Shown here piece by piece: positions 1 to 11,990 of a stretch of DNA of 32,000 bases. The notes under the pieces were generated by a model. The model ran no database searches and was not told where the DNA came from. It saw only the letters and a list, made by a program, of their open reading frames with translations. Position 1 is the first letter of the stretch, and the number at the start of each line of letters is the position of its first letter. A program made the position numbers and the translations under genes. This DNA comes from Candidatus Brocadia sp. (lineage in GTDB: Bacteria > Planctomycetota > Brocadiia > Brocadiales > Brocadiaceae): contig CP091279.1 of NCBI GenBank assembly GCA_021650915.1, positions 990,001 to 1,022,000 of the forward strand, read 5' to 3'.

Positions 1-710
1 CGGTCTCGGTGCAAAAAGCCAACCGCAGGGTCAAGCCCTACGCCCTCAAGCGCGGAACGCACGTCATGCATCAGGAGGGTATACAAAAAAGAGAGCAGGC
101 AGTTTACCGTATCCAACGGAGGCCTCCTGTTTCTTTCCCGAAAGCGAAAATCGTCTTTCTGTGAAGTAATCAATTGATTAAAGACACCAAAGTATGTGGA
201 TGCGGACTCCCCTTCTATTCCGCGTGAAATATCCAGTGTCAATTCAGCATTTAGCCGCACGATGTAATGGGCAAGCCTCTGAGAAGCCTTTGAAACCGCA
301 TCAGCGTCAATCTTATCCGAATGGTCTCGTAATGCGCGCGAAAGCACCGTGCGACAATTTGCTATTTTACCGGTCAATACGGCACGAGCTATTAATGCAG
401 AGGATTTTGGGTCATCAGCCCTGCGGTACTGCTCGCGCCTCAAAAGCACGTTGCCCGACACCGGGCCCTGCACCTTTGCGAGAAAATCGCCGGTTTCCGT
501 CAAAAAACTGATTGCCACCTCCTTCTCAGCGCAGAATCCCATTAAGTAAGGGCTGCACGAGACCTGGCCAAAACAGACAATCCCGCCGAGGGTATGAACC
601 GGGATGGTCAGTTTCACCTCACCCTCAACCTTCACCACCACCGTCTCACCCTCCTTGGCAAGATACGCCCCCTGCGTTGTGACGAATAATGTGTTCAGGT
701 GTCTTTTCAT
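1..710 (-). CDS. cas1: CRISPR-associated endonuclease Cas1 (type I-C), 5' part; runs off left edge of window
   Basis: Absent from the ORF track because it is open-ended. Manual translation of the minus strand from ATG at 710-708 gives MKRHLNTLFVTTQGAYLAKEGETVVVKVEGEVKLTIPVHTLGGIVCFGQVSCSPYLMGFCAEKEVAISFLTETGDFLAKVQGPVSGNVLLRREQYRRADD...NRRPPLDTVNCLLSFLYTLLMHDVRSALEGVGLDPAVGFLHRD with no stop down to position 1. The pattern is typical of Cas1. ATGA start/stop overlap with the upstream ORF, and it sits in the cas operon. Confidence 0.9.
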   Translation of the reverse strand, partial: MKRHLNTLFVTTQGAYLAKEGETVVVKVEGEVKLTIPVHTLGGIVCFGQVSCSPYLMGFCAEKEVAISFLTETGDFLAKVQGPVSGNVLLRREQYRRADDPKSSALIARAVLTGKIANCRTVLSRALRDHSDKIDADAVSKASQRLAHYIVRLNAELTLDISRGIEGESASTYFGVFNQLITSQKDDFRFRERNRRPPLDTVNCLLSFLYTLLMHDVRSALEGVGLDPAVGFLHRD

Positions 711-1282
711 TCTTTTGTCCTATTCTTTCTTTTTTCAGATCGTGCCCGGTAGAGCCTTTCTGTGAACCCACCCTCTTTCAGAAAGGTCTTTTCCAATGCC
801 CGCAACTGCTGGTCGAGCAGGTAGTTTGTCTGGTGAATCAGGCAGATCATGGTGTTTGCCGCCACTTCCGGAGGCGAAGCCTCCAGATAGGTCTTATAAG
901 TCTCATAAGACCTATTTTTACTATGCGCAAGTTTGCGCACAGCAAGCGCCTGCTCATGCTCTTTTCCCCAGAGAGGCAGCTTGCGCTGCCTCAAATAATC
1001 CTGAAAGTCAAGAAGCAGTTCTTCAAGGCTTGCCCGTGCCACGCCGACAAGCTTTAGTTCGGTTTTTTTAGAAGTGCCTGAAGCCATACTCCCTTCGGCA
1101 ATATTCTGCTTGCCGCTACGCGCCGCCTGCACCATCTGATCGTGGGTGCGGGAACGGCGGTCGATGAATCGGTCGCAGAATACTATTGTAGCATCATAAA
1201 CAATCTCTGACATTTTGTAGGACTGCAGTTCCCGATACCCGCCGTGCGGCGGGATAAGCGGAGATTCTTTATTATCAGTCAT
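707..1282 (-). CDS. Four-helix-bundle protein (23S rRNA intervening-sequence protein / Avd-like family, with C-terminal suffix domain) inserted between cas4 and cas1
   Basis: ORF 707..1303. The preferred start is ATG 1282 (MTDNKESPLIPPHGGYRELQSY...) because GAGGAGG lies 7 nt upstream. Hallmark motifs are FCDRFIDRRSRTHDQMVQAARSGKQNIAEGS and KLVGVARASLEELLLDFQDYLRQR. Overlaps the cas4 end by 8 nt; its TGA overlaps the cas1 ATG (ATGA). Confidence 0.8.
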   Translation of the reverse strand: MTDNKESPLIPPHGGYRELQSYKMSEIVYDATIVFCDRFIDRRSRTHDQMVQAARSGKQNIAEGSMASGTSKKTELKLVGVARASLEELLLDFQDYLRQRKLPLWGKEHEQALAVRKLAHSKNRSYETYKTYLEASPPEVAANTMICLIHQTNYLLDQQLRALEKTFLKEGGFTERLYRARSEKRKNRTKE

Positions 1283-1958
1283 TTTGTGCCTCCTCTTTTG
1301 CATCAGATGCGGAATCCATCGCCCTCATCAGATAATTACTTACCCTGCTGCTCACCTTCGGCATGCACAGATTTAGCAATGAACAGAGTTTGCACTTCTT
1401 TGAATATTCCGCCTTCGGGGTAATACCGGATGCAATGAGTTCATGCACCTTCCTTGAGGCATTCTCTGTCTCAGTCCGCAATGCTTTATCAAAAACCACA
1501 TCCATACGGCGACGGGTTTTGCCATAAAAAATAGCGCCAGATGGAATATTTCCGCCCAACATTTCTTCAAGGCAAATTCCTTGAGCGCAAAGCTGAATTG
1601 CAAAGCTAAGTTCATGACGAAGATATCCTCTTTTATACTCAACAGGGAACGGCAACCATAAACCGGATACGCCTTCAAGTTTAACTCCGCCTGTTGCCGT
1701 CTTATGAAACTCCACCATATCAGCCTTGCCGATGAGTCCAAGAACGAGGGAACGCAGCCAGACACTACGAGCAATCCGCACACTTCCGCGCACCTCCGAA
1801 GCTGATTCATCATCCACTCGTTCATGAAGGATAGAACCCTCAGCGGTCATTACATTGTCTTCCCAGACGCGCTCAATGAAATGCAATGCTGCACGGCGTT
1901 CGCAAAAAGTGAAATCGGATAGCGCGGAGATGGGGATCAAGTCATCTTCTGAATACAT
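1275..1958 (-). CDS. cas4: CRISPR-associated exonuclease Cas4 (RecB-like nuclease with 4-Cys cluster)
   Basis: 227 aa. N-terminal FTFCERR cysteine and C-terminal CKLCSLLNLC cysteines. GKADMVEF and EYKRG nuclease motifs. TAATG overlap with the cas7 stop. Confidence 0.9.
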   Translation of the reverse strand: MYSEDDLIPISALSDFTFCERRAALHFIERVWEDNVMTAEGSILHERVDDESASEVRGSVRIARSVWLRSLVLGLIGKADMVEFHKTATGGVKLEGVSGLWLPFPVEYKRGYLRHELSFAIQLCAQGICLEEMLGGNIPSGAIFYGKTRRRMDVVFDKALRTETENASRKVHELIASGITPKAEYSKKCKLCSLLNLCMPKVSSRVSNYLMRAMDSASDAKEEAQND

Positions 1959-3001
1959 TACGATTTCTCAGGGATTTCCCATATTACTTTTTTGACTGTG
2001 ATTTTATTCCCATCAACTTGTCCAGGAACGCATCCGAAATAGTCATTAATTGAATCAGGATAGTCTTTATTCTTATCCCGCATCTCAACTTTTACCATGT
2101 CGAATAGTTTATGTGCATGTTCATTCCCAAGCGGTCTTGAATGCTGAAAATCAACAAGCCCTACCACTCTCATGCCTGAGCGGTTGGAAGATGGGTCATC
2201 GGTAAACATGTGTGTCATTGCAAAAAGAAAATTATCCAGATCAAAATAAGTAAAGCCGGTTTTTGCAGCGAAGGCAGGAGAAAAATAGATATGCGCTCTA
2301 TAGAGTCCATAGTCAATATTATATTTTCTCCCCATAGTGCGATTGCCGCCAGTCTTCTCATCACCCTCACTTTGCTTTTCCTGTTCCTTTTTCTCTTTTT
2401 CGCTTGTTGAGCAGCAACGAGTAATTGTGGCGTCCAACTGAAGCACCTTATCCAGTGATTCAGCAAATGAGAATTGAATCGGTCCCCGAACCTGTCCGTA
2501 GAAACTGCCTTTAAGAGGCCCTTCCGTAGAAATTACACCGCCGAAAGCACGCAAATCAAAATAGGTTTGACATAAGGCATCTCTATGAGAAATATCCCAA
2601 AACTCATTTCCCTTCTTGAAAGCAGTTTCATTCTGCTTATAAATATCTATGAATATTCTCTTAGCTGAAGCATTTATTGGTGCAGCTTCCATCAACTGCT
2701 GTAGAATCGCATTTTCCTTTATAAAAATATCGTAACCGCTTTCCGGATTGTCTTTTAAATTTCCGTCTGTCTTGTAAAGGCTGAAGAAATTCCTGATTTT
2801 TCTTTTAAGACAGACATCCGTAACCATACCTTTCAAGGTATTCGGCTGGATTCTCGGCATGTTTTCAGCGTCAGGGTCACCGTTGGGATTCGCCTTTTTC
2901 GCATCAAAAAGCAAAACCATGTCATGGCGTTCGGTAACCACACCAGAAGCTACTTTCCCATTCGGCAGTGTTACAATATTGTGATGAAGTTCGTTACTCA
3001 T
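1958..3001 (-). CDS. cas7: Cas7 (Csd2) backbone subunit of type I-C Cascade
   Basis: ORF 1958..3115. Start moved to ATG 3001 (MSNELHHNIV...), which overlaps the cas8c stop by 8 nt. Motifs LLFDAKKANPNGDPD, NRTMGRKYNIDYGLY and DPSSNRSG are typical of Csd2/Cas7. Confidence 0.9.
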   Translation of the reverse strand: MSNELHHNIVTLPNGKVASGVVTERHDMVLLFDAKKANPNGDPDAENMPRIQPNTLKGMVTDVCLKRKIRNFFSLYKTDGNLKDNPESGYDIFIKENAILQQLMEAAPINASAKRIFIDIYKQNETAFKKGNEFWDISHRDALCQTYFDLRAFGGVISTEGPLKGSFYGQVRGPIQFSFAESLDKVLQLDATITRCCSTSEKEKKEQEKQSEGDEKTGGNRTMGRKYNIDYGLYRAHIYFSPAFAAKTGFTYFDLDNFLFAMTHMFTDDPSSNRSGMRVVGLVDFQHSRPLGNEHAHKLFDMVKVEMRDKNKDYPDSINDYFGCVPGQVDGNKITVKKVIWEIPEKS

Positions 3002-3473
3002 TTGATTCCTCCTTTGCATCTTGGTTTGTATCTTCTTTGCCCTTAGTCTCAGGCATTTTCTTGCACCTTTCACGCTCGTAATAAAAACCGATTGCAAAAC
3101 GTCCCTGATCCTCAAGGCTTAACATTCTCGGAAATTCCTGACTTGATGTTTCCTGTAACCTCGCACATAGTCTCGCTAAACCTTCCCAGTCCTCGTCAAC
3201 ACCGTCTTTTCGTTTGTCCTTAGGTATGCCGAACTCAAGATTATAGGCCAGGCCGGGTGGCATTTTTCTAAGATGATGTCTTGCTAAATTACAAAGTCGT
3301 GGGAAAATCATAGCCGGAGTCTTAGAGGCAACAGAATAAACTCTGTTGGCTGGTGAATTGTTTGTCCCTCCGCTTTGCTGATGTGCAACAGAATGAATCT
3401 TGTCCAGCATCGCCAAAAGCCGCCCGCATAAATAACCCGGACTCTTTTCAACATCGTGTCTTTTCTGTTCCAT
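2994..3473 (-). CDS. cas11: Putative Cas11c small subunit translated from an internal start within cas8c
   Basis: In-frame ATG at 3473 (MEQKRHDVEKSPGYLCGRLL..., 159 aa) is preceded by a strong internal SD: the minus strand reads AAAGGAGGAGATACT-ATG. Internal Cas11 translation from cas8 is described for type I-C. Confidence 0.55.
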   Translation of the reverse strand: MEQKRHDVEKSPGYLCGRLLAMLDKIHSVAHQQSGGTNNSPANRVYSVASKTPAMIFPRLCNLARHHLRKMPPGLAYNLEFGIPKDKRKDGVDEDWEGLARLCARLQETSSQEFPRMLSLEDQGRFAIGFYYERERCKKMPETKGKEDTNQDAKEESNE

Positions 3474-4843
3474 AGTATCTCCTCCTTTCGTTGTTTTAAA
3501 AAATAGTTTTATTACTGCCGTTCTTGCAGCCAAACGTTTCTCAAAATCTTTTTCTTCAGCTCCTTTTGCCATTTCTACGCCCTGCCGGATTAATACCGTC
3601 TTAAATAATTTATACGGCACTAGAAAACCAAACAGAGCGGTTTCAAATAAAGATATGTAAGTATTTGGGAGCGGTTTTGCCGGTTGTCCCTTCTTTGGTT
3701 TTCTAACCGTTACGCCAGCAAGTTCAGAAATAGAGAATGTAGTGTCTTCTCCATTTAGAGGCATAACTATCGCTTGAAAATAGGATTTAATCTTTTCTTC
3801 TGCTTCTTTTAAAGTCTCGGTATGCCACGAATAAATTGAAAATCTCCCTCTTTTCGGCGCTAATAAAACAGCATAAAAATTAGATTCCTCAATACTCGGC
3901 TGCCTGTGTCCCCAGATGTTGTTAAAGAAATCTTTGACTTCCAGAGTATCATTTTTTGAAATAAGCGAAACAAAGCCGGTTGAATTGACCGAATCATTAT
4001 TTTTTGCCCAGAAAACCGCTGTAATATCTCCCATGACAATATTGTAATTTTCATCTGCCAACATCCGGTTCAAAGCTGCAGCAGATTTTTCAGCCGTTTC
4101 AATGCGAAGAGGTGTAGTTTGCTTCCCCAGACCATAGGATATAAATGGTTCCTTGTCAAAAGAAGCAAAGGGAATGTTGTTAAACACAACCGGAAAAAAT
4201 TCTGTAAGCTTGCCGCTGTCAGGCAAAATAAAGTCTTTGCCATCGGGTAAAAGCGACAAAACTTCGTTTCTCGTACTTTCAATTTTATGTGCCCACCAAT
4301 CCAAAATATCTTTGTCTAAGAGACCTATTTTCCCATTAACACGGAACGAAATCCTTTCGTATCCATCGCTAAATCTTTTCAGTAATTTATCTCTTCCGTC
4401 TTCCGGTAAATTTGCGACCGGAAACTTTGGCCTCGATTTCAAAAATTGAGTGATTGCATATAGGATATTATTGTTCGGTAACTTCTTCCTGGCTCCAAAC
4501 ATTAATTTCCATGATTCCTTACGTTTCTTGTCATTAATAAGCTGTCCTCCATCTACACCTCTTGGATATAATTCATTCGCTGGGTATGTCAGGAAATCCG
4601 GAAGCCAATTATGCTGATTTGTGCAAACGGATTTAATCTCTCCATTTTCAGCCTGACAATAAAGATTGACAGGCGTTTTATATCGCTTGCCTCTCTCATC
4701 TTTATTTTTCCAACCCGCCGTTGTCGGACTAAAGCTTAAATAATTTCCGTCAACGTCAAGGTCAATGAACCAGTGGACTTTTCTTTCGCGAAATGATTCG
4801 TGGCCGGTCAAGCCGTTATCATCGGCTATTCTTAATAATTCTT

Positions 4844-4850
<7 letters not shown>
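2994..4850 (-). CDS. cas8c: Cas8c (Csd1) large subunit of type I-C Cascade
   Basis: 618 aa. The N-terminus (MLEELLRIADDNGL...FRERKVHWFIDLDVDGNYLSF) and position between cas5 and cas7 fit Csd1. Overlaps the cas5 stop by 7 nt. Confidence 0.9.
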
Positions 4851-7962
<3,112 letters not shown>

Positions 7963-8370
7963 CTATCATCTTGAATACTCCCCCACATTATGCTGTAAAT
8001 CAGTCCAGTAATTTGTGTCTCACGTGCTGAATTGATTGACGAATTTTCTGGAAAGTGCAACAACCTCTTTTAAATGGTAGTCAAGCCTGTGCTTCTAGCC
8101 TTGTGAATTAGCGGAATGGGCGTAAAGTATTTTCACAATATATAACCCCTCAACCACCCGATTAACAAATGGGATTGTGCTTTTTTCAGAAAATAGGAAT
8201 CGAGATTATTTTTAAGATATGCCTACCTTCATTAGTCTCAGGCGGGATTCTACTACAAATTGTATATCCTTACAACAGATATATTCAATCGACAAGGGGT
8301 GGGAAAAGGATTCCTTTTCGGAAGAGGTTTTTGTAAAGTCTATACTCATTGGCATTGCCCACGGTGAGTC

Positions 8371-8403
8371 AGCCCTGTCAGGGTTTGAAGCCCTGACAGG
8401 GTT
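8371..8403. repeat. Two tandem 15-nt near-palindromic units AGCCCTG(T/A)CAGGGTT separated by TGA; can fold as an ~11-bp hairpin
   Basis: Read directly: agccctgtcagggtt-tga-agccctgacagggtt. Lies 98 nt downstream of the 8501 OMP stop (minus sense) and 436 nt upstream of the cas3 ATG. Confidence 0.5.
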
Positions 8404-8500
8404 ACGTATTCCTGGCATGAAACATCACACCACAGGCAAATATCTATGCTCTGTTTTTTTGAAATACCACCTTGCTACTCCATATCAATCATTTGCCGGT

Positions 8501-9547
8501 TTAAAAAGCCCAAACGATAGAGGCCATTGCCCGCCAATCCACTACCTGCTGAATGCCTCTGGCATGCTGGTAGAGGGGTTGCTGAAATTTCAGATCAATA
8601 CTCCCACCCGTCTTCGGCATCCTTATCTGAAGAGAAGGCGTAATTGAAACAGAGGTAATGCCGGTATTGTCGGTGTTATCCAAAAGGGATTCATCCGGTC
8701 TTGAATATCTGTCGTCATGATCGGTGTCCTGCCCTGCATAAAACAGATTGAGCTCCAGGCCGGGGTTTACATAGCTGGTTAGCAGGTATCGGGCGATAAG
8801 GTCGAGTGATACCTTGTCTCCAAATTCATAACCCTCGTCACCTTCTGTCGTCGCATGATACAAAAGATTGGCCTGAAAGACCACAGGGGAAAGCGTGTGG
8901 AGGTAATTGATGAGAAAAAGAGGATCCCACGACCCTGTCCCTGCCTGCATCACGGCATGGGCAAGGTTGCCGGAATCTGTCTCATCGTCATTTTTACCCG
9001 TCGGGAGTTTTAGTCCGATTCCCACGGTTAGCTTTTTTGCTGGGGCATCGGGATTATCCAGATAAGGCTTGTAAAGCCCCATAAGGGTCATGTCTCCAAG
9101 CCCCTCTATGGTATCCATCTCCATGTCCATCCTCATATCCATTCCCATCGGACTCCTCATCACCATTCTCATATCCATGTCGTTTATCACATAGGGAACC
9201 GTAGTCAGAAACTGAAGCCGTTCCGTGACAGAATAGGTGCCTAACACGGTATACTTTTGCATAATCATCCTTGTCGGTATTGCAAAGCTCTTCCCATCCA
9301 TAGGCATCGCCGGCCATTCTGCAGCTACCTGATCCAGCAGGGTATTGTGGCCGATACGGTCGGACCCATCCCGTATTGTCTCCATATTGGTGTATTCATA
9401 CTGAAGTGATAGGCCAAAATTTGATGCCGAGGTAACATGAGAGGTGGCCGCCTCAAAAAGCGTTCTTGAGAGGCAACACTCGCCGTGTGCATAAACAGCA
9501 CGGGAAGTACAGAGGAGAACCAGGATTATTGCGCCAGAAAACTTCAT
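8501..9547 (-). CDS. Outer-membrane beta-barrel protein (MetA-pathway/'transporter' OMP-like) with Met-rich loop
   Basis: 348 aa. Signal peptide MKFSGAIILVLLCTSRAVYA|HGECC. Alternating beta-strand pattern and terminal aromatic ...IVWAF typical of OMPs. Met-rich segment DMDMRMVMRSPMGMDMRMDMEMD (nt 9113-9181). Paralogous to ORF 16980..17999. Confidence 0.7.
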   Translation of the reverse strand: MKFSGAIILVLLCTSRAVYAHGECCLSRTLFEAATSHVTSASNFGLSLQYEYTNMETIRDGSDRIGHNTLLDQVAAEWPAMPMDGKSFAIPTRMIMQKYTVLGTYSVTERLQFLTTVPYVINDMDMRMVMRSPMGMDMRMDMEMDTIEGLGDMTLMGLYKPYLDNPDAPAKKLTVGIGLKLPTGKNDDETDSGNLAHAVMQAGTGSWDPLFLINYLHTLSPVVFQANLLYHATTEGDEGYEFGDKVSLDLIARYLLTSYVNPGLELNLFYAGQDTDHDDRYSRPDESLLDNTDNTGITSVSITPSLQIRMPKTGGSIDLKFQQPLYQHARGIQQVVDWRAMASIVWAF

Positions 9548-9640
9548 AATAACTCCTTAGAAAATTGAATAATGTTCAAATTAAAAAAATTAATTGCTGC
9601 GACGAAATTAGGCCTTCGGCGACCTCGTTTGATGTCACAC

Positions 9641-9715
9641 GTAGGGGCGAAGCATTTGCTGTCCAGGATATAAGATGACATTCAAATTTCATTTCAGCAA
9701 ATGCTTCGCCCCTAC
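9641..9715. repeat. Perfect 21-bp inverted repeat (GTAGGGGCGAAGCATTTGCTG / CAGCAAATGCTTCGCCCCTAC) with 33-nt loop
   Basis: Arms 9641-9661 and 9695-9715 checked base by base. Flanked by AGGCCTTCGGC at 9610-9620 and 9747-9757, and by AAATTCCTATACAT at 9727-9740. These flank motifs recur near 14.8 kb. Confidence 0.85.
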
Positions 9716-10003
9716 AACAAACGTTTAAATTCCTATACATCAAATCAGGCCTTCGGCTGAAATCATGGGAAACGTGACCGCTATGAACGACAGTATCCCG
9801 CCGGAATGAATATACATCCCCTTACCGGCCTTATCTCTTCCCTGAACAGAGAGATGGCTTAGCATAGCGATTGAAAATAGATGCGAGTGATCGGCAGTTT
9901 TGTGTCGGCAATTCGGGTAATAGGGAAACAATCGAGTCGCAATGATTGCTCATACCCGTAATAGCGCTCGTCTGATGCGTCTGCCTTGTCAGGAGTTTTG
10001 GTT

Positions 10004-10438
10004 TTACGCGGAACAACGGGGAGGCTTTTCGGGAGGTGATACCATAGGTTCACCAGGGTAAACTACGGTATCGCTGGTAAGAAAACATAAAAATGTTATT
10101 GAGGAAATCAAACCATCATTGTCCGGAATGAATTTCAGGTCAACGTGCATTATAGTGACTGCATCACTTCCGGATTTACACTGGAGGCTGCTTATGAATG
10201 ATTGAAAGCTGTCTTTCGGGTTTTTTACATCAGATTGAGACGCTGACGCATTCCCCCGCGGCGAACAGCAGCAACGTGCCTTGCAATCAGATTCTGACTT
10301 GCAACCACATGCATGGTCTTTGCAGGGATATTCACCCGATTTCACGGACACATTGAAGGGTATGCCACCGCCACATAAGGTGAGACTGAAAAAAATGAAA
10401 ATTTGAATAGCGGCAAAAACCTTGTTAACCTTGCGCAT
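10004..10438 (-). CDS. Cys-rich secreted/membrane-anchored hypothetical protein (putative metal-binding)
   Basis: ORF 10004..10474. Likely start is MRKVNKVFAAIQIFIFFSLTLCGG (hydrophobic signal/anchor). Cluster CKDHACGCKSESDCKARCCC at nt 10265-10324. No family recognised. Confidence 0.5.
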   Translation of the reverse strand: MRKVNKVFAAIQIFIFFSLTLCGGGIPFNVSVKSGEYPCKDHACGCKSESDCKARCCCSPRGNASASQSDVKNPKDSFQSFISSLQCKSGSDAVTIMHVDLKFIPDNDGLISSITFLCFLTSDTVVYPGEPMVSPPEKPPRCSA

Positions 10439-10762
10439 GGCTGCTCGTGATATCCAGATGAACGTTCGATCCATTCATAAATCAATTGGGCTTCTTTAAG
10501 AATTTTCAGCTTAAAATACTAGCAGATTCAATATTGAAAATCAATTCAGAATACGATGCATGAGAGAGACGAATAAAAGTTTTGATGAAATAAAAACGAA
10601 ACCGGGTATAATAAGCCAGCAGCTATGGATTCGTTATATCGCGTACGCGGAAACAATGGAACTGAGATAAGAGGAATGATGAGGTAAGACCATAGCACGG
10701 TAAGCCCGGAGAGCAAGCGATTACGAAATAAATTGAAAAGAGACACGGAGCTTTCTCAGATT

Positions 10763-11035
10763 GTAACTATTCAGCGAAAATTGCAAGACCGGAAAATCCC
10801 GAAAGGATGCCATGATTATATTTTGTTGTTACGCAAGTATGGTTGACTCCGTAGGGGTAGCATCGTGTCGCTATTGTCCAGATATTTCACCCCTTACGGG
10901 GTTGAATATCGTGGTGCGTTTTTCTATAATCATGACATCCCTTCGGGATTTTTCCCGTTTGTCCGGTTTTCCTATTGGCTACTAACTATTCTGAGACAAT
11001 ATTCTCTGTCATCGTCAGTTTCGCTGAATAGTTAC
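10763..11035. repeat. 273-bp palindromic (MITE-like or structured-leader) element with 17-bp perfect terminal inverted repeats
   Basis: GTAACTATTCAGCGAAA at 10763-10779 versus TTTCGCTGAATAGTTAC at 11019-11035. Inner arms also pair (TATAATCATG[G/A]CATCC[T/C]TTCGGGATTTT). Central hairpin GATATTTCACCCC-TTAC-GGGGTTGAATATC. Ends 31 nt before the antiporter ATG. Confidence 0.6.
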
Positions 11036-11066
11036 TACTTTGTTCTATTATTTTCCTCAGAAACCG

Positions 11067-11990
11067 ATGGAAATCTTCATAAACCTCCTTGCGCTTACTG
11101 CAAGTCTCGGCGTGCTGGTATTCTTAGGCGAGAAGCTTATTCTGTCCGCACAGAGACTCGCCAGGGCCTTTGGCGTTTCATCGGCAGTCATAGGACTTAC
11201 GGTGCTTGCCTACGGGACGTCGCTCCCGGAATTTGTTGTGTCATCGATGGCCGCTGTCAGACAAAGCAGCGATTTATCGGTTTCCAATATCGTTGGCTCG
11301 AATATCTACAACATTGCTTTCATCCTTGGTGTAGCAAGCATCATAAGCCCTCTCTCAATAAAAGAGACTATCTTCGCAAAAAGGGATGGGCTGGTAATGC
11401 TGTTTGCTGTCATTATCATATGCCTTTTTGCATACCTTGGAAAAATGGGAAGGCTTACAGGAATAGCGATGGTAGCGATCATTGCAGGCTACACCTACAC
11501 GATCATAAGACACGACAGGGTTCACCGCAAGACTGGGCCTGATAAAAATTTATCAAAAATCAAAGAGGCCGTCGTCGTTGTCCTTCTGCTTGCGGGAGTC
11601 CTGATAAGCGGATATTTTACGGTGGATTATGCGGTAAAGCTGGCGCGCTCTGCCGGGGTTACCGAGTGGCTCATCGGCGCAACCATTGTGGCGGCAGGCA
11701 CTTCATTGCCAGAAACGATTGTTTCCATTCTTGCGGCAAGGAAGGGTGAATATGCAATGTCAATCGGAAACATCGTGGGCTCAAATATATTCAATATCCT
11801 CTGGATTCTTGGTTTTGCCTCTATTCTGAACCCGCTAACGATCAATTTTCAAAAGATCTATCCAGACCTCATATTTCTCGCAATTATAACCCTGCTCTTG
11901 TATGCAGCTCTTCGGAAAGGCAGGCTGACAAAGGGAGAGGGGTTGCTGTATATTGCGCTCTATATCGGCTATATCTCTTATCTGCTGTAG
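11067..11990 (+). CDS. Ca2+/Na+ antiporter, CaCA (YrbG-like) family
   Basis: ORF 11040..11990. Likely start MEIFINLL at 11067. Duplicated alpha-repeat motifs GTSLPEFVVS...GSNIYNI and GTSLPETIVS...GSNIFNILWILG. About 10 TM helices. Confidence 0.85.
   Translation: MEIFINLLALTASLGVLVFLGEKLILSAQRLARAFGVSSAVIGLTVLAYGTSLPEFVVSSMAAVRQSSDLSVSNIVGSNIYNIAFILGVASIISPLSIKETIFAKRDGLVMLFAVIIICLFAYLGKMGRLTGIAMVAIIAGYTYTIIRHDRVHRKTGPDKNLSKIKEAVVVVLLLAGVLISGYFTVDYAVKLARSAGVTEWLIGATIVAAGTSLPETIVSILAARKGEYAMSIGNIVGSNIFNILWILGFASILNPLTINFQKIYPDLIFLAIITLLLYAALRKGRLTKGEGLLYIALYIGYISYLL

Follow-up and report, generated by a model that had tools for sequence, protein, structure and literature searches.

What is a gene for a four-helix-bundle protein doing between cas4 and cas1, inside the spacer-acquisition (adaptation) module of a type I-C CRISPR-cas operon? 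The question is raised by a stretch of 32,000 nucleotides (nt) from Candidatus Brocadia sp. (assembly GCA_021650915.1, contig CP091279.1, positions 990,001 to 1,022,000), hereafter the window. An original prediction, made from the sequence alone, placed the gene in a family with the open reading frames (ORFs) of 23S rRNA intervening sequences (IVS) and with Avd, and proposed that it could be either a selfish cassette tolerated inside the operon or an accessory factor of spacer acquisition. We use "4HB gene" as shorthand for this four-helix-bundle gene at the cas4–cas1 junction, and L-numbers for the surveyed comparison loci. Our analysis indicates that the 4HB gene represents a real, adaptation-module-linked lineage of what looks like an autonomous cassette with the IVS-protein/Avd fold. 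The first of the two proposals lies closer to the evidence, and the chances seem to us evenly balanced that the gene is an autonomous cassette resident in the adaptation module, that is, a passenger rather than a proven CRISPR factor.

The cas4–cas1 junction

The junction comprises the following features:
1..710, minus strand: cas1 (type I-C), first 236 codons; the gene continues beyond the window start
707..1282, minus strand: 4HB gene, 191 amino acids (aa), TIGR04258 and TIGR02436, Avd/23S-IVS-protein fold
887..915: in-frame palindromic array with a 9-nt period (minus-strand sequence ATAGGTCTTATGAGACTTATAAGACCTAT) in the helix 3–helix 4 insert of the 4HB gene
1275..1958, minus strand: cas4, 227 aa, stop TGA 1277-1275; its last 8 nt are shared with the 4HB start
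1289..1295, minus strand: Shine-Dalgarno-like GAGGAGG, read directly from the sequence, within the cas4 3' end and 6 nt upstream of ATG 1282

Direct reading and the ORF list confirmed the gene at this junction, its co-orientation with both neighbours and the predicted signals (ATG 1282, GAGGAGG, the 8-nt overlap with cas4), and reading of the 3' end showed that the stop TGA 709-707 overlaps the cas1 ATG 710-708 as ATGA. The mechanical ORF is 707-1303 (198 aa, from ATG 1303), but the start was placed at ATG 1282-1280, and because homologues begin with the same Met (MTD...), 191 aa is the likely product. Coupled translation from the operon mRNA probably produces the 4HB protein. The placement between cas4 and cas1 is, as had been proposed, non-canonical for type I-C.

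Fold and family of the 4HB protein

Hidden Markov model scans and superposition of a predicted model bore out the family and fold that had been proposed. TIGR04258 (4helix_suffix) matched with 88.5 bits (cutoff 40) at residues 145-193 over the full model (1-49) and TIGR02436 with 29.3 bits, above its cutoff of 24, while PF05635 reached 27.8 bits, under the gathering score of 33.8; homologues do carry PF05635 in the precomputed Pfam column of the database. The AlphaFold2 monomer model (mean predicted local distance difference test score 85.4, 53 sequences in the alignment) contains helices at 20-39, 45-67 and 72-99, a two-helix insert (110-119, 126-133), a long fourth helix at 138-170 and a basic C-terminal helix at 173-190, so that an insert of about 35 aa splits helix 4 from the first three and the C-terminal helix forms the "suffix". 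Using Foldseek, the model was superposed on 2GSC (Xcc0516) with probability 1.0 and a template-modelling (TM) score of 0.80 and on 2RLD (BT_0352) with probability 0.99; in a viral structure library a phage "Avd-like protein" superposed with TM 0.80 and a root-mean-square deviation of 3.7 Å. The protein is basic (isoelectric point 9.45), with a net charge of +4 in the insert and +5 in the C-terminal tail.

The family is very large, with 4,284 clusters (50% identity) at E <= 1e-3 and 512 at E <= 1e-30. PADLOC models gave 0 families at E <= 0.1 and PHROGs nothing meaningful, and PHROG 3206 "Avd protein of DGR" (diversity-generating retroelement, DGR) was not matched; a known defence or phage family was ruled out on these grounds. 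A HEPN-like Rx4H motif (R42...H47) was rejected since H47 is not conserved across the family. As a clue to function, the one fusion inspected (P0239, 4HB with a MeaB GTPase) was uninformative and may be a run-through gene call.

Linkage to adaptation modules

Is the position in the window an isolated accident? The 120 best database matches, found in Brocadia, Nitrospirota, Deltaproteobacteria and Planctomycetes, share 83-93% identity with the 4HB protein. All five of the close homologues that were looked up lie in I-C operons, between cas4 and cas1 in Brocadia and between cas7 and cas4 elsewhere. Taking up the survey that the original prediction had proposed, we then scanned one genome per species; this yielded 581 relatives, of which the best 80, ordered by similarity to the window 4HB protein, were kept, so that any estimate of enrichment from them is biased. 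Among these 80, 14 are adjacent to cas genes, across at least six phyla: 13 in I-C-type loci (73-87% identity to the window protein) and one, L019 (79%), in a type I-E locus. By neighbour-joining the CRISPR-linked copies form one clade, with one non-CRISPR copy nested inside and one CRISPR-linked copy outside. The association of the 4HB gene with CRISPR-cas loci is thus recurrent and non-random.

Within these loci the 4HB gene lies at the 5' edge of the adaptation module, up to a few kb upstream of it, or at the cas4–cas1 junction; directly upstream of cas4 is its position in most of them. The position holds in three effector architectures, namely canonical I-C, a split-cas3 variant (L013, L017, L040; cas3''-cas5-cas8-cas7-cas3'-4HB-cas4..., with a short HD-type fragment first and the helicase last) and type I-E, represented by the Nitrospira metagenome-assembled genome of L019 (cas6e-cas7e-cas5e-4HB-cas1e-cas2e, 7136-11762). 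Start/stop overlaps with cas4 or cas1 were found in the window and in five further loci (L007, L018, L024, L029, L030), and in three 4HB-positive loci arrays of 9-18 typical I-C repeats follow cas2. Two side observations concern the same loci: in the split-cas3 variant a 706-aa protein in the cas8 position matches no Pfam or NCBIfam model, and in L019 the I-E operon is followed, 3 kb further downstream, by another cas4-cas1-cas2 set.

These data bear on the second proposal, one form of which is that the 4HB protein would be a facultative but dedicated adaptation cofactor, an oligomer working with Cas1-Cas2 (and Cas4) as Avd does with the reverse transcriptase (RT) of DGRs. Its task might be to retain DNA of the prespacer or the leader, to serve integration as an architectural factor or to keep the nucleases in check. 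We consider such a cofactor possible but rather unlikely. The retention of one clade in CRISPR loci across phyla, its adaptation-side position irrespective of effector architecture, the start/stop overlaps and the repeat arrays that follow 4HB-positive loci all argue for it, as does the precedent of Avd (PMC6182149). The lack of a PADLOC match argues against it. Furthermore, to our knowledge the well-studied I-C loci of Bacillus halodurans, Desulfovibrio vulgaris and Pseudomonas aeruginosa have no 4HB gene.

Conservation and co-inheritance

The 4HB protein was found to be the most conserved protein of the operon. In the 17 loci compared, mean pairwise identity is 0.75 for 4HB, 0.66 for Cas1, 0.63 for Cas2 and 0.56 for Cas4, and on the effector side 0.40 for Cas7, 0.32 for Cas3 and 0.28 for Cas8c; between L003 and the window, identity is 83% for 4HB, 48% for Cas1, 39% for Cas4, 32% for Cas3 and 28% for Cas7. 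Recent horizontal transfer was ruled out as the source of the 83-93% cross-phylum identity: synonymous divergence (dS) runs from 0.6 to saturated and the ratio of nonsynonymous to synonymous rates (dN/dS) from 0.05 to 0.16, therefore purifying selection maintains the protein.

Distances between 4HB proteins correlate with those of Cas1 (Spearman 0.53), Cas2 (0.49) and Cas4 (0.37) and are uncorrelated with those of Cas7 (-0.17) and Cas3 (-0.02); for reference, the values are 0.81 for Cas1 versus Cas4 and -0.18 for Cas1 versus Cas7. Since the gene usually stands exactly between cas7 and cas4 and yet tracks Cas1, Cas2 and Cas4, it is inherited with the adaptation side. This covariation speaks for a cofactor. 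On the other hand, conservation of the 4HB protein greatly exceeds that of its supposed partners, and only 2 of its 191 residues distinguish the CRISPR clade from the rest of the family. These two, M24 and H109, were rejected as specificity residues, H109 being present in the nearest non-CRISPR relatives as well, so that a dedicated cofactor would have to do without CRISPR-specific residues. Its sequence appears to be constrained independently of the Cas proteins.

Contexts outside CRISPR

The remaining 66 species-level loci among the best 80 have no cas genes and heterogeneous neighbours, and six of them encode proteins 73-78% identical to the window 4HB protein, which again speaks against dedication to adaptation; across the contexts described here the non-CRISPR relatives are 56-78% identical to it. 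The gene follows secA, dnaK, comM, a histidine kinase gene or cheR, a purF-like gene or an ABC transporter gene, in gut Bacteroidales a peptidase M3 gene, and in Prevotella it stands alone. In many copies the gap to a preceding co-directional gene is under 50 nt. The original prediction had set random occurrence in unrelated operons against a link to adaptation; unrelated operons were indeed found (hsdR, dnaK, secA and others), alongside one clade that recurs at cas loci. The phage collection contained no records of the family and a single plasmid-labelled Prevotella replicon carries the gene, there standing alone; phage or plasmid cargo was rejected on this basis.

Part of the non-CRISPR contexts are related to defence. 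hsdR lies directly downstream of the 4HB gene with ATGA-type overlaps in L021, L046, L073 and L087, the gene follows hsdM in L031 and L050, and other neighbours encode an ERCC4 nuclease, RadC and an OLD-like AAA_15 ATPase with DUF2851. A defence helper common to type I restriction-modification and type I CRISPR systems could be envisaged, for example one that neutralises DNA-mimic anti-restriction or anti-CRISPR proteins, or one that modulates PD-(D/E)xK nuclease domains such as HsdR-N and Cas4. The place of the gene upstream of hsdR and, in most CRISPR loci, upstream of cas4 suits such a helper, as do the hsdM, ERCC4, AAA_15 and DUF2851 neighbours and the basic charge of the protein. Yet housekeeping or stand-alone contexts make up about half of those examined outside CRISPR, the gene downstream in L019 and the window is cas1 and not one for a PD-(D/E)xK nuclease, and PADLOC again gave no match; we regard this explanation as very improbable.

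Turnover at adaptation modules

To what extent is the gene retained where it occurs? Six loci were picked solely because their Cas1 is 80-87% identical to the window Cas1, with the following state of the 4HB gene:
L220 (Brocadiaceae, I-C): two copies of different subtypes, 2093-2677 and 3425-3991, before cas4 and between cas4 and cas1
L222: 2457-3023, 85% identical, with a single premature TAA; locus otherwise an intact I-C locus
L223: degenerate remnant of 61 codons, 3161-3346, at the cas7–cas4 junction; locus otherwise an intact I-C locus
L221, L224, L225: no 4HB gene

The gene is intact in one locus, decayed in two and missing from three, so its presence in the lineage is patchy. For a cofactor, absence, interruption by a nonsense codon or truncation in five of six loci with such similar Cas1 proteins is hard to accommodate, while the two family members within the single L220 module point the other way. 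The L220 copies are only 68% identical to each other and are therefore probably independent insertions.

The cas7–cas4 and cas4–cas1 junctions of related loci also host PIN-MazE, YoeB-YefM, MNT-HepT and RhuM/Fic modules, and in related I-C loci the cas4–cas1 junction has the look of a hot spot for insertions. Occupants of the latter junction were seen at L003 9220-9859, L008 9262-9764, L221 3431-3933 and L225 3353-4004, and further at L007 9236-10312, L014 5086-6135 and L017 7546-9802. These modules share the junctions and the patchy presence of the 4HB gene; the 4HB gene, unlike the toxin-antitoxin modules, is a single gene, always co-directional with cas, without a partner or a toxin-like domain.

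Taken together, the choice between the two original proposals leans towards the cassette, on account of the promiscuous contexts, the 2 of 191 distinguishing residues and the losses, and a role in adaptation is left unproven. It is the insertion of the family into many unrelated operons and its frequent loss that make the gene look like a passenger.

Palindromic nonamer arrays

Does the cassette contain anything besides a protein-coding gene? Synonymous-site identity among 4HB genes is highest at residues ~116-135. In the window this region contains the array at 887-915, which encodes N-R-S-Y-E-T-Y-K-T-Y and is predicted to fold into a 13-bp hairpin of -14.4 kcal/mol (z = -3.3). Codon choice in the motif is strongly skewed. 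Of the 55 Arg codons 51 are AGG, a share that drops to 95 of 637 in the rest of these genes (p = 2e-33), and TAT accounts for 112 of the 114 Tyr codons as compared to 140 of 248 outside the motif (p = 1e-19). The internal array is a hallmark of the family, and the constraint on it at nucleotide level is real. A second 4HB subtype (L057, L064, L073, L074, L081, L087, L088 and L220 2093-2677) has GTCRGAC-type palindromes with the same 9-nt period in the same loop, encoding SDxSDxSD, with very stable predicted hairpins of up to -47 kcal/mol.

The arrays are also found at the borders of the gene. Applying a stringent definition to 85 loci, we counted 27 arrays within 150 nt of 4HB gene ends, in 21 of the loci, together with 52 internal copies and 8 in the remaining 1.15 Mb; examples are L068 10562-10698, L058 4699-4727 and L028 7107-7135. 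The unit (ATAGGWCCT)n is self-complementary, and internal and border arrays show mutual complementarity. A reverse search revealed a dispersed family of repeats that also stands by itself: a perfect three-unit array occurs on at least 120 metagenome contigs (L100-L219), three of which have a 4HB gene at the array or close by; exclusivity of the arrays to 4HB genes was ruled out by the other 117, where the neighbours are heterogeneous. The dispersed nonamer sometimes lies in frame within other proteins, as IGPIGP or YRTYRT. Rfam assigned no family at the arrays or the operon, with only sub-threshold generic hairpin (miRNA-precursor) matches. Covariation as a proof of the hairpin was unsupported, most pairs being invariant and the variable pairs 13-31 and 15-29 mostly uncompensated.

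The arrays raise the possibility that the cassette acts at the level of RNA. ORFs of this family gave it its name because they lie inside rRNA intervening sequences, which are excised at flanking stems. The cassette and its hairpin arrays, perhaps bound by the protein, would then punctuate the cas mRNA at the boundary between effector and adaptation genes, where they could serve as an RNase III-type processing site, like those of 23S rRNA intervening sequences, or as an autoregulatory operator and uncouple adaptation from effector expression. Beyond the family background, including the confirmed presence of such ORFs in rRNA insertions, an RNA-level role accords with the mutual complementarity of border and internal arrays, with the predicted folding of the window array and with the constraint on its nucleotides. 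L006 offers a further parallel: at 10310-10741, between cas1 and cas2, a short PF05635/Avd-like gene (106 aa), the product of which matches PHROG 3206 "Avd protein of DGR", lies within a 28-nt inverted repeat (89% complementary), an architecture like that of an rRNA intervening sequence. However, the window copy has no flanking arrays, and the overlaps of the 4HB gene with both neighbours leave an enclosing stem no space. Just 2 of the 85 loci show clear arrays at both ends, many mismatches are uncompensated and covariation support for the hairpin is weak, and an RNA-level role would not account for the strong purifying selection that acts on the protein as a whole. We therefore judge an RNA-level role improbable.

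Relation to known systems

Genes with PF05635 have been reported in cas loci before. Zhang and Ye described 18 of them near Cas4 or Cas6 in 2014 and noted the helix-2 motif (PMC3936711), and Altae-Tran et al. linked UAS-8, "23S rRNA IVP + DUF2325 (+RT)", to acquisition genes in 2023 (PMC10910872). Neither report assigned a function, so that the statement of the original prediction that no role in CRISPR adaptation had been described holds as regards function, but not as regards the occurrence of the family in cas loci. These independent links of PF05635 to cas loci and acquisition modules lend some support to a cofactor. The genes described here belong to the same superfamily and are likewise sited beside adaptation genes or nucleases, but the earlier reports concern I-B, I-E, II-A and III-B loci and a cyanobacterial module with DUF2325 and RT, whereas ours is a suffix-domain clade in I-C and I-E. 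Our literature search found no description of this clade in I-C/I-E modules, of a 4HB protein more conserved than Cas1 or covarying with Cas1, Cas2 and Cas4, of its turnover or of the nonamer arrays.

With the 23S IVS proteins Xcc0516 and BT_0352 the 4HB protein shares the fold, the helix-2 motif ...S-x3-N-I-A-E-G and the nature of a small gene within other transcription units. Unlike typical IVS proteins, it is ~75 residues longer, with a basic insert of ~35 aa and a basic C-terminal suffix helix, its PF05635 score is below gathering, it is far more strongly conserved and it lies outside an rRNA gene. Rfam found no rRNA in 1-3200 and the window has no inverted repeat enclosing the gene, so it is not an IVS ORF in the strict sense. 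rRNA insertions of candidate phyla radiation bacteria carry IVS-type ORFs that have been termed functionally uncharacterised.

The characterised relative by fold is Avd, a pentameric, positively charged protein that is essential for cDNA synthesis by bRT on DGR RNA (PMC6182149). Similar to bAvd, the 4HB protein is a basic four-helix bundle encoded beside a nucleic-acid enzyme that it may serve, but sequence identity is about 10% and the suffix domain is missing from Avd. No RT or template/variable repeat was found among the annotated operon genes or ten other large ORFs, small ORFs being unscanned; with neither these DGR components nor a PHROG 3206 match, the window 4HB protein falls outside the Avd family. 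A further analogy, and only that, is provided by repetitive extragenic palindromic (REP) elements and REP-associated tyrosine transposases (RAYT), where a single-copy gene has short palindromic repeats at its borders and the repeats are also dispersed, mostly without the gene. Unlike RAYT, the 4HB protein lacks HUH/Tyr transposase features and any recognisable catalytic domain; unlike REP, the nonamers are tandem 9-mers that also occur in frame inside the gene.

Operon and surroundings in the window

Upstream of the junction, the type I-C effector module is complete in the window, and after it the adaptation module begins; the minus-strand gene order is cas3, cas5c, cas8c, cas7, cas4, 4HB, cas1. 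The effector genes, identified by Pfam/NCBIfam scans, are:
1958..3001, minus strand: cas7 (Csd2); start taken as ATG 3001, the mechanical ORF from TTG reaching 3115
2994..4850, minus strand: cas8c (Csd1)
4844..5617, minus strand: cas5c
5614..7935, minus strand: cas3 (HD nuclease and helicase)

Every Cas assignment passes Pfam or NCBIfam, with Cas1 matching TIGR03640 cas1_DVULG (2.9e-100) and Cas7 TIGR02589. Compared with its Brocadia relative L001, positions 1-9230 of the window form a mosaic of DNA identity, with 94-96% in cas3, cas5, cas4 and cas1 and lower values in cas8c (84%), 4HB (87%) and cas7 (91%); the immediate neighbours of the 4HB gene, cas4 and cas1, are at 94-95%. The pattern suggests segmental exchange and hints at exchange of the 4HB allele. 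Just upstream of cas3, a 12/24-nt tandem repeat at 9112-9178 gives rise to a Met/Asp-rich repeat, MDMRMVMRSPMGMDMRMDMEMD, in a secreted-looking protein of 348 aa without a Pfam match (8501-9547, minus strand). A DDE transposase gene (PF01609; 15329-16792, minus strand) lies ~7 kb from the cas operon, and the rest of the window carries housekeeping genes, namely those for deoxyhypusine synthase, DUF748, TldD/PmbA and two PilT-like ATPases.

The cassette reading and its implications

How could a passenger have come to be so closely tied to adaptation genes? We envisage a cassette consisting of a small gene with its own (ATAGGWCCT)n arrays, inside it and often at its borders, that would settle co-directionally behind or between the genes of operons of many kinds. 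An ancestor of the present lineage would have inserted beside a type I adaptation module and then been carried with cas4-cas1-cas2 by horizontal transfer across phyla and effector types. Other members of the family would have made insertions of their own, and loss of copies would have recurred. By analogy with its structurally solved relatives, which are pentamers (Xcc0516 a homopentamer), and with Avd, the 4HB protein may assemble into an oligomer with affinity for structured nucleic acid, its own nonamer hairpins being possible targets. Its activity would be independent of the Cas proteins and any effect on CRISPR facultative.

Several findings weigh against the view of the gene as a passenger. 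It is co-oriented, tightly coupled and intact even where Cas1 has diverged to 27% identity, and the adaptation side is kept in three effector architectures, neither of which would be expected of a pure passenger. Cas loci and acquisition modules have taken up further PF05635 lineages as well, and Avd, the one characterised member of the family, is the cofactor of a nucleic-acid enzyme (PMC6182149); both fit a functional link. No mobility enzyme is recognisable in the cassette, which has no copies in the phage collection and almost none on plasmids. The window copy has only the internal array, with none at its borders, and the ordering of the survey by similarity has to be counted here as well. 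We put at somewhat below even the chance that at least one of two statements is true: that the 4HB protein is an Avd-like scaffold cofactor of acquisition by Cas1-Cas2(-Cas4) in I-C and I-E, or that gene and nonamer form a REP/RAYT-like self-propagating element without a recognisable recombinase and with a preference for defence operons.

Should the 4HB protein assist Cas1-Cas2, it would add a new, host-independent factor to adaptation and give a very large family of orphans its first function. As a passenger, it would show that small autonomous modules (4HB cassettes, toxin-antitoxin pairs, Fic/RhuM) accumulate in type I operons at the effector/adaptation boundary and at the cas4–cas1 junction, which bears on the annotation of genes as "CRISPR-associated" by neighbourhood alone. 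Moreover, the link between a 9-nt repeat and this gene family provides a testable lead to what the 23S-IVS-type proteins bind, a question that has stood since the ORFs were first seen in rRNA intervening sequences.

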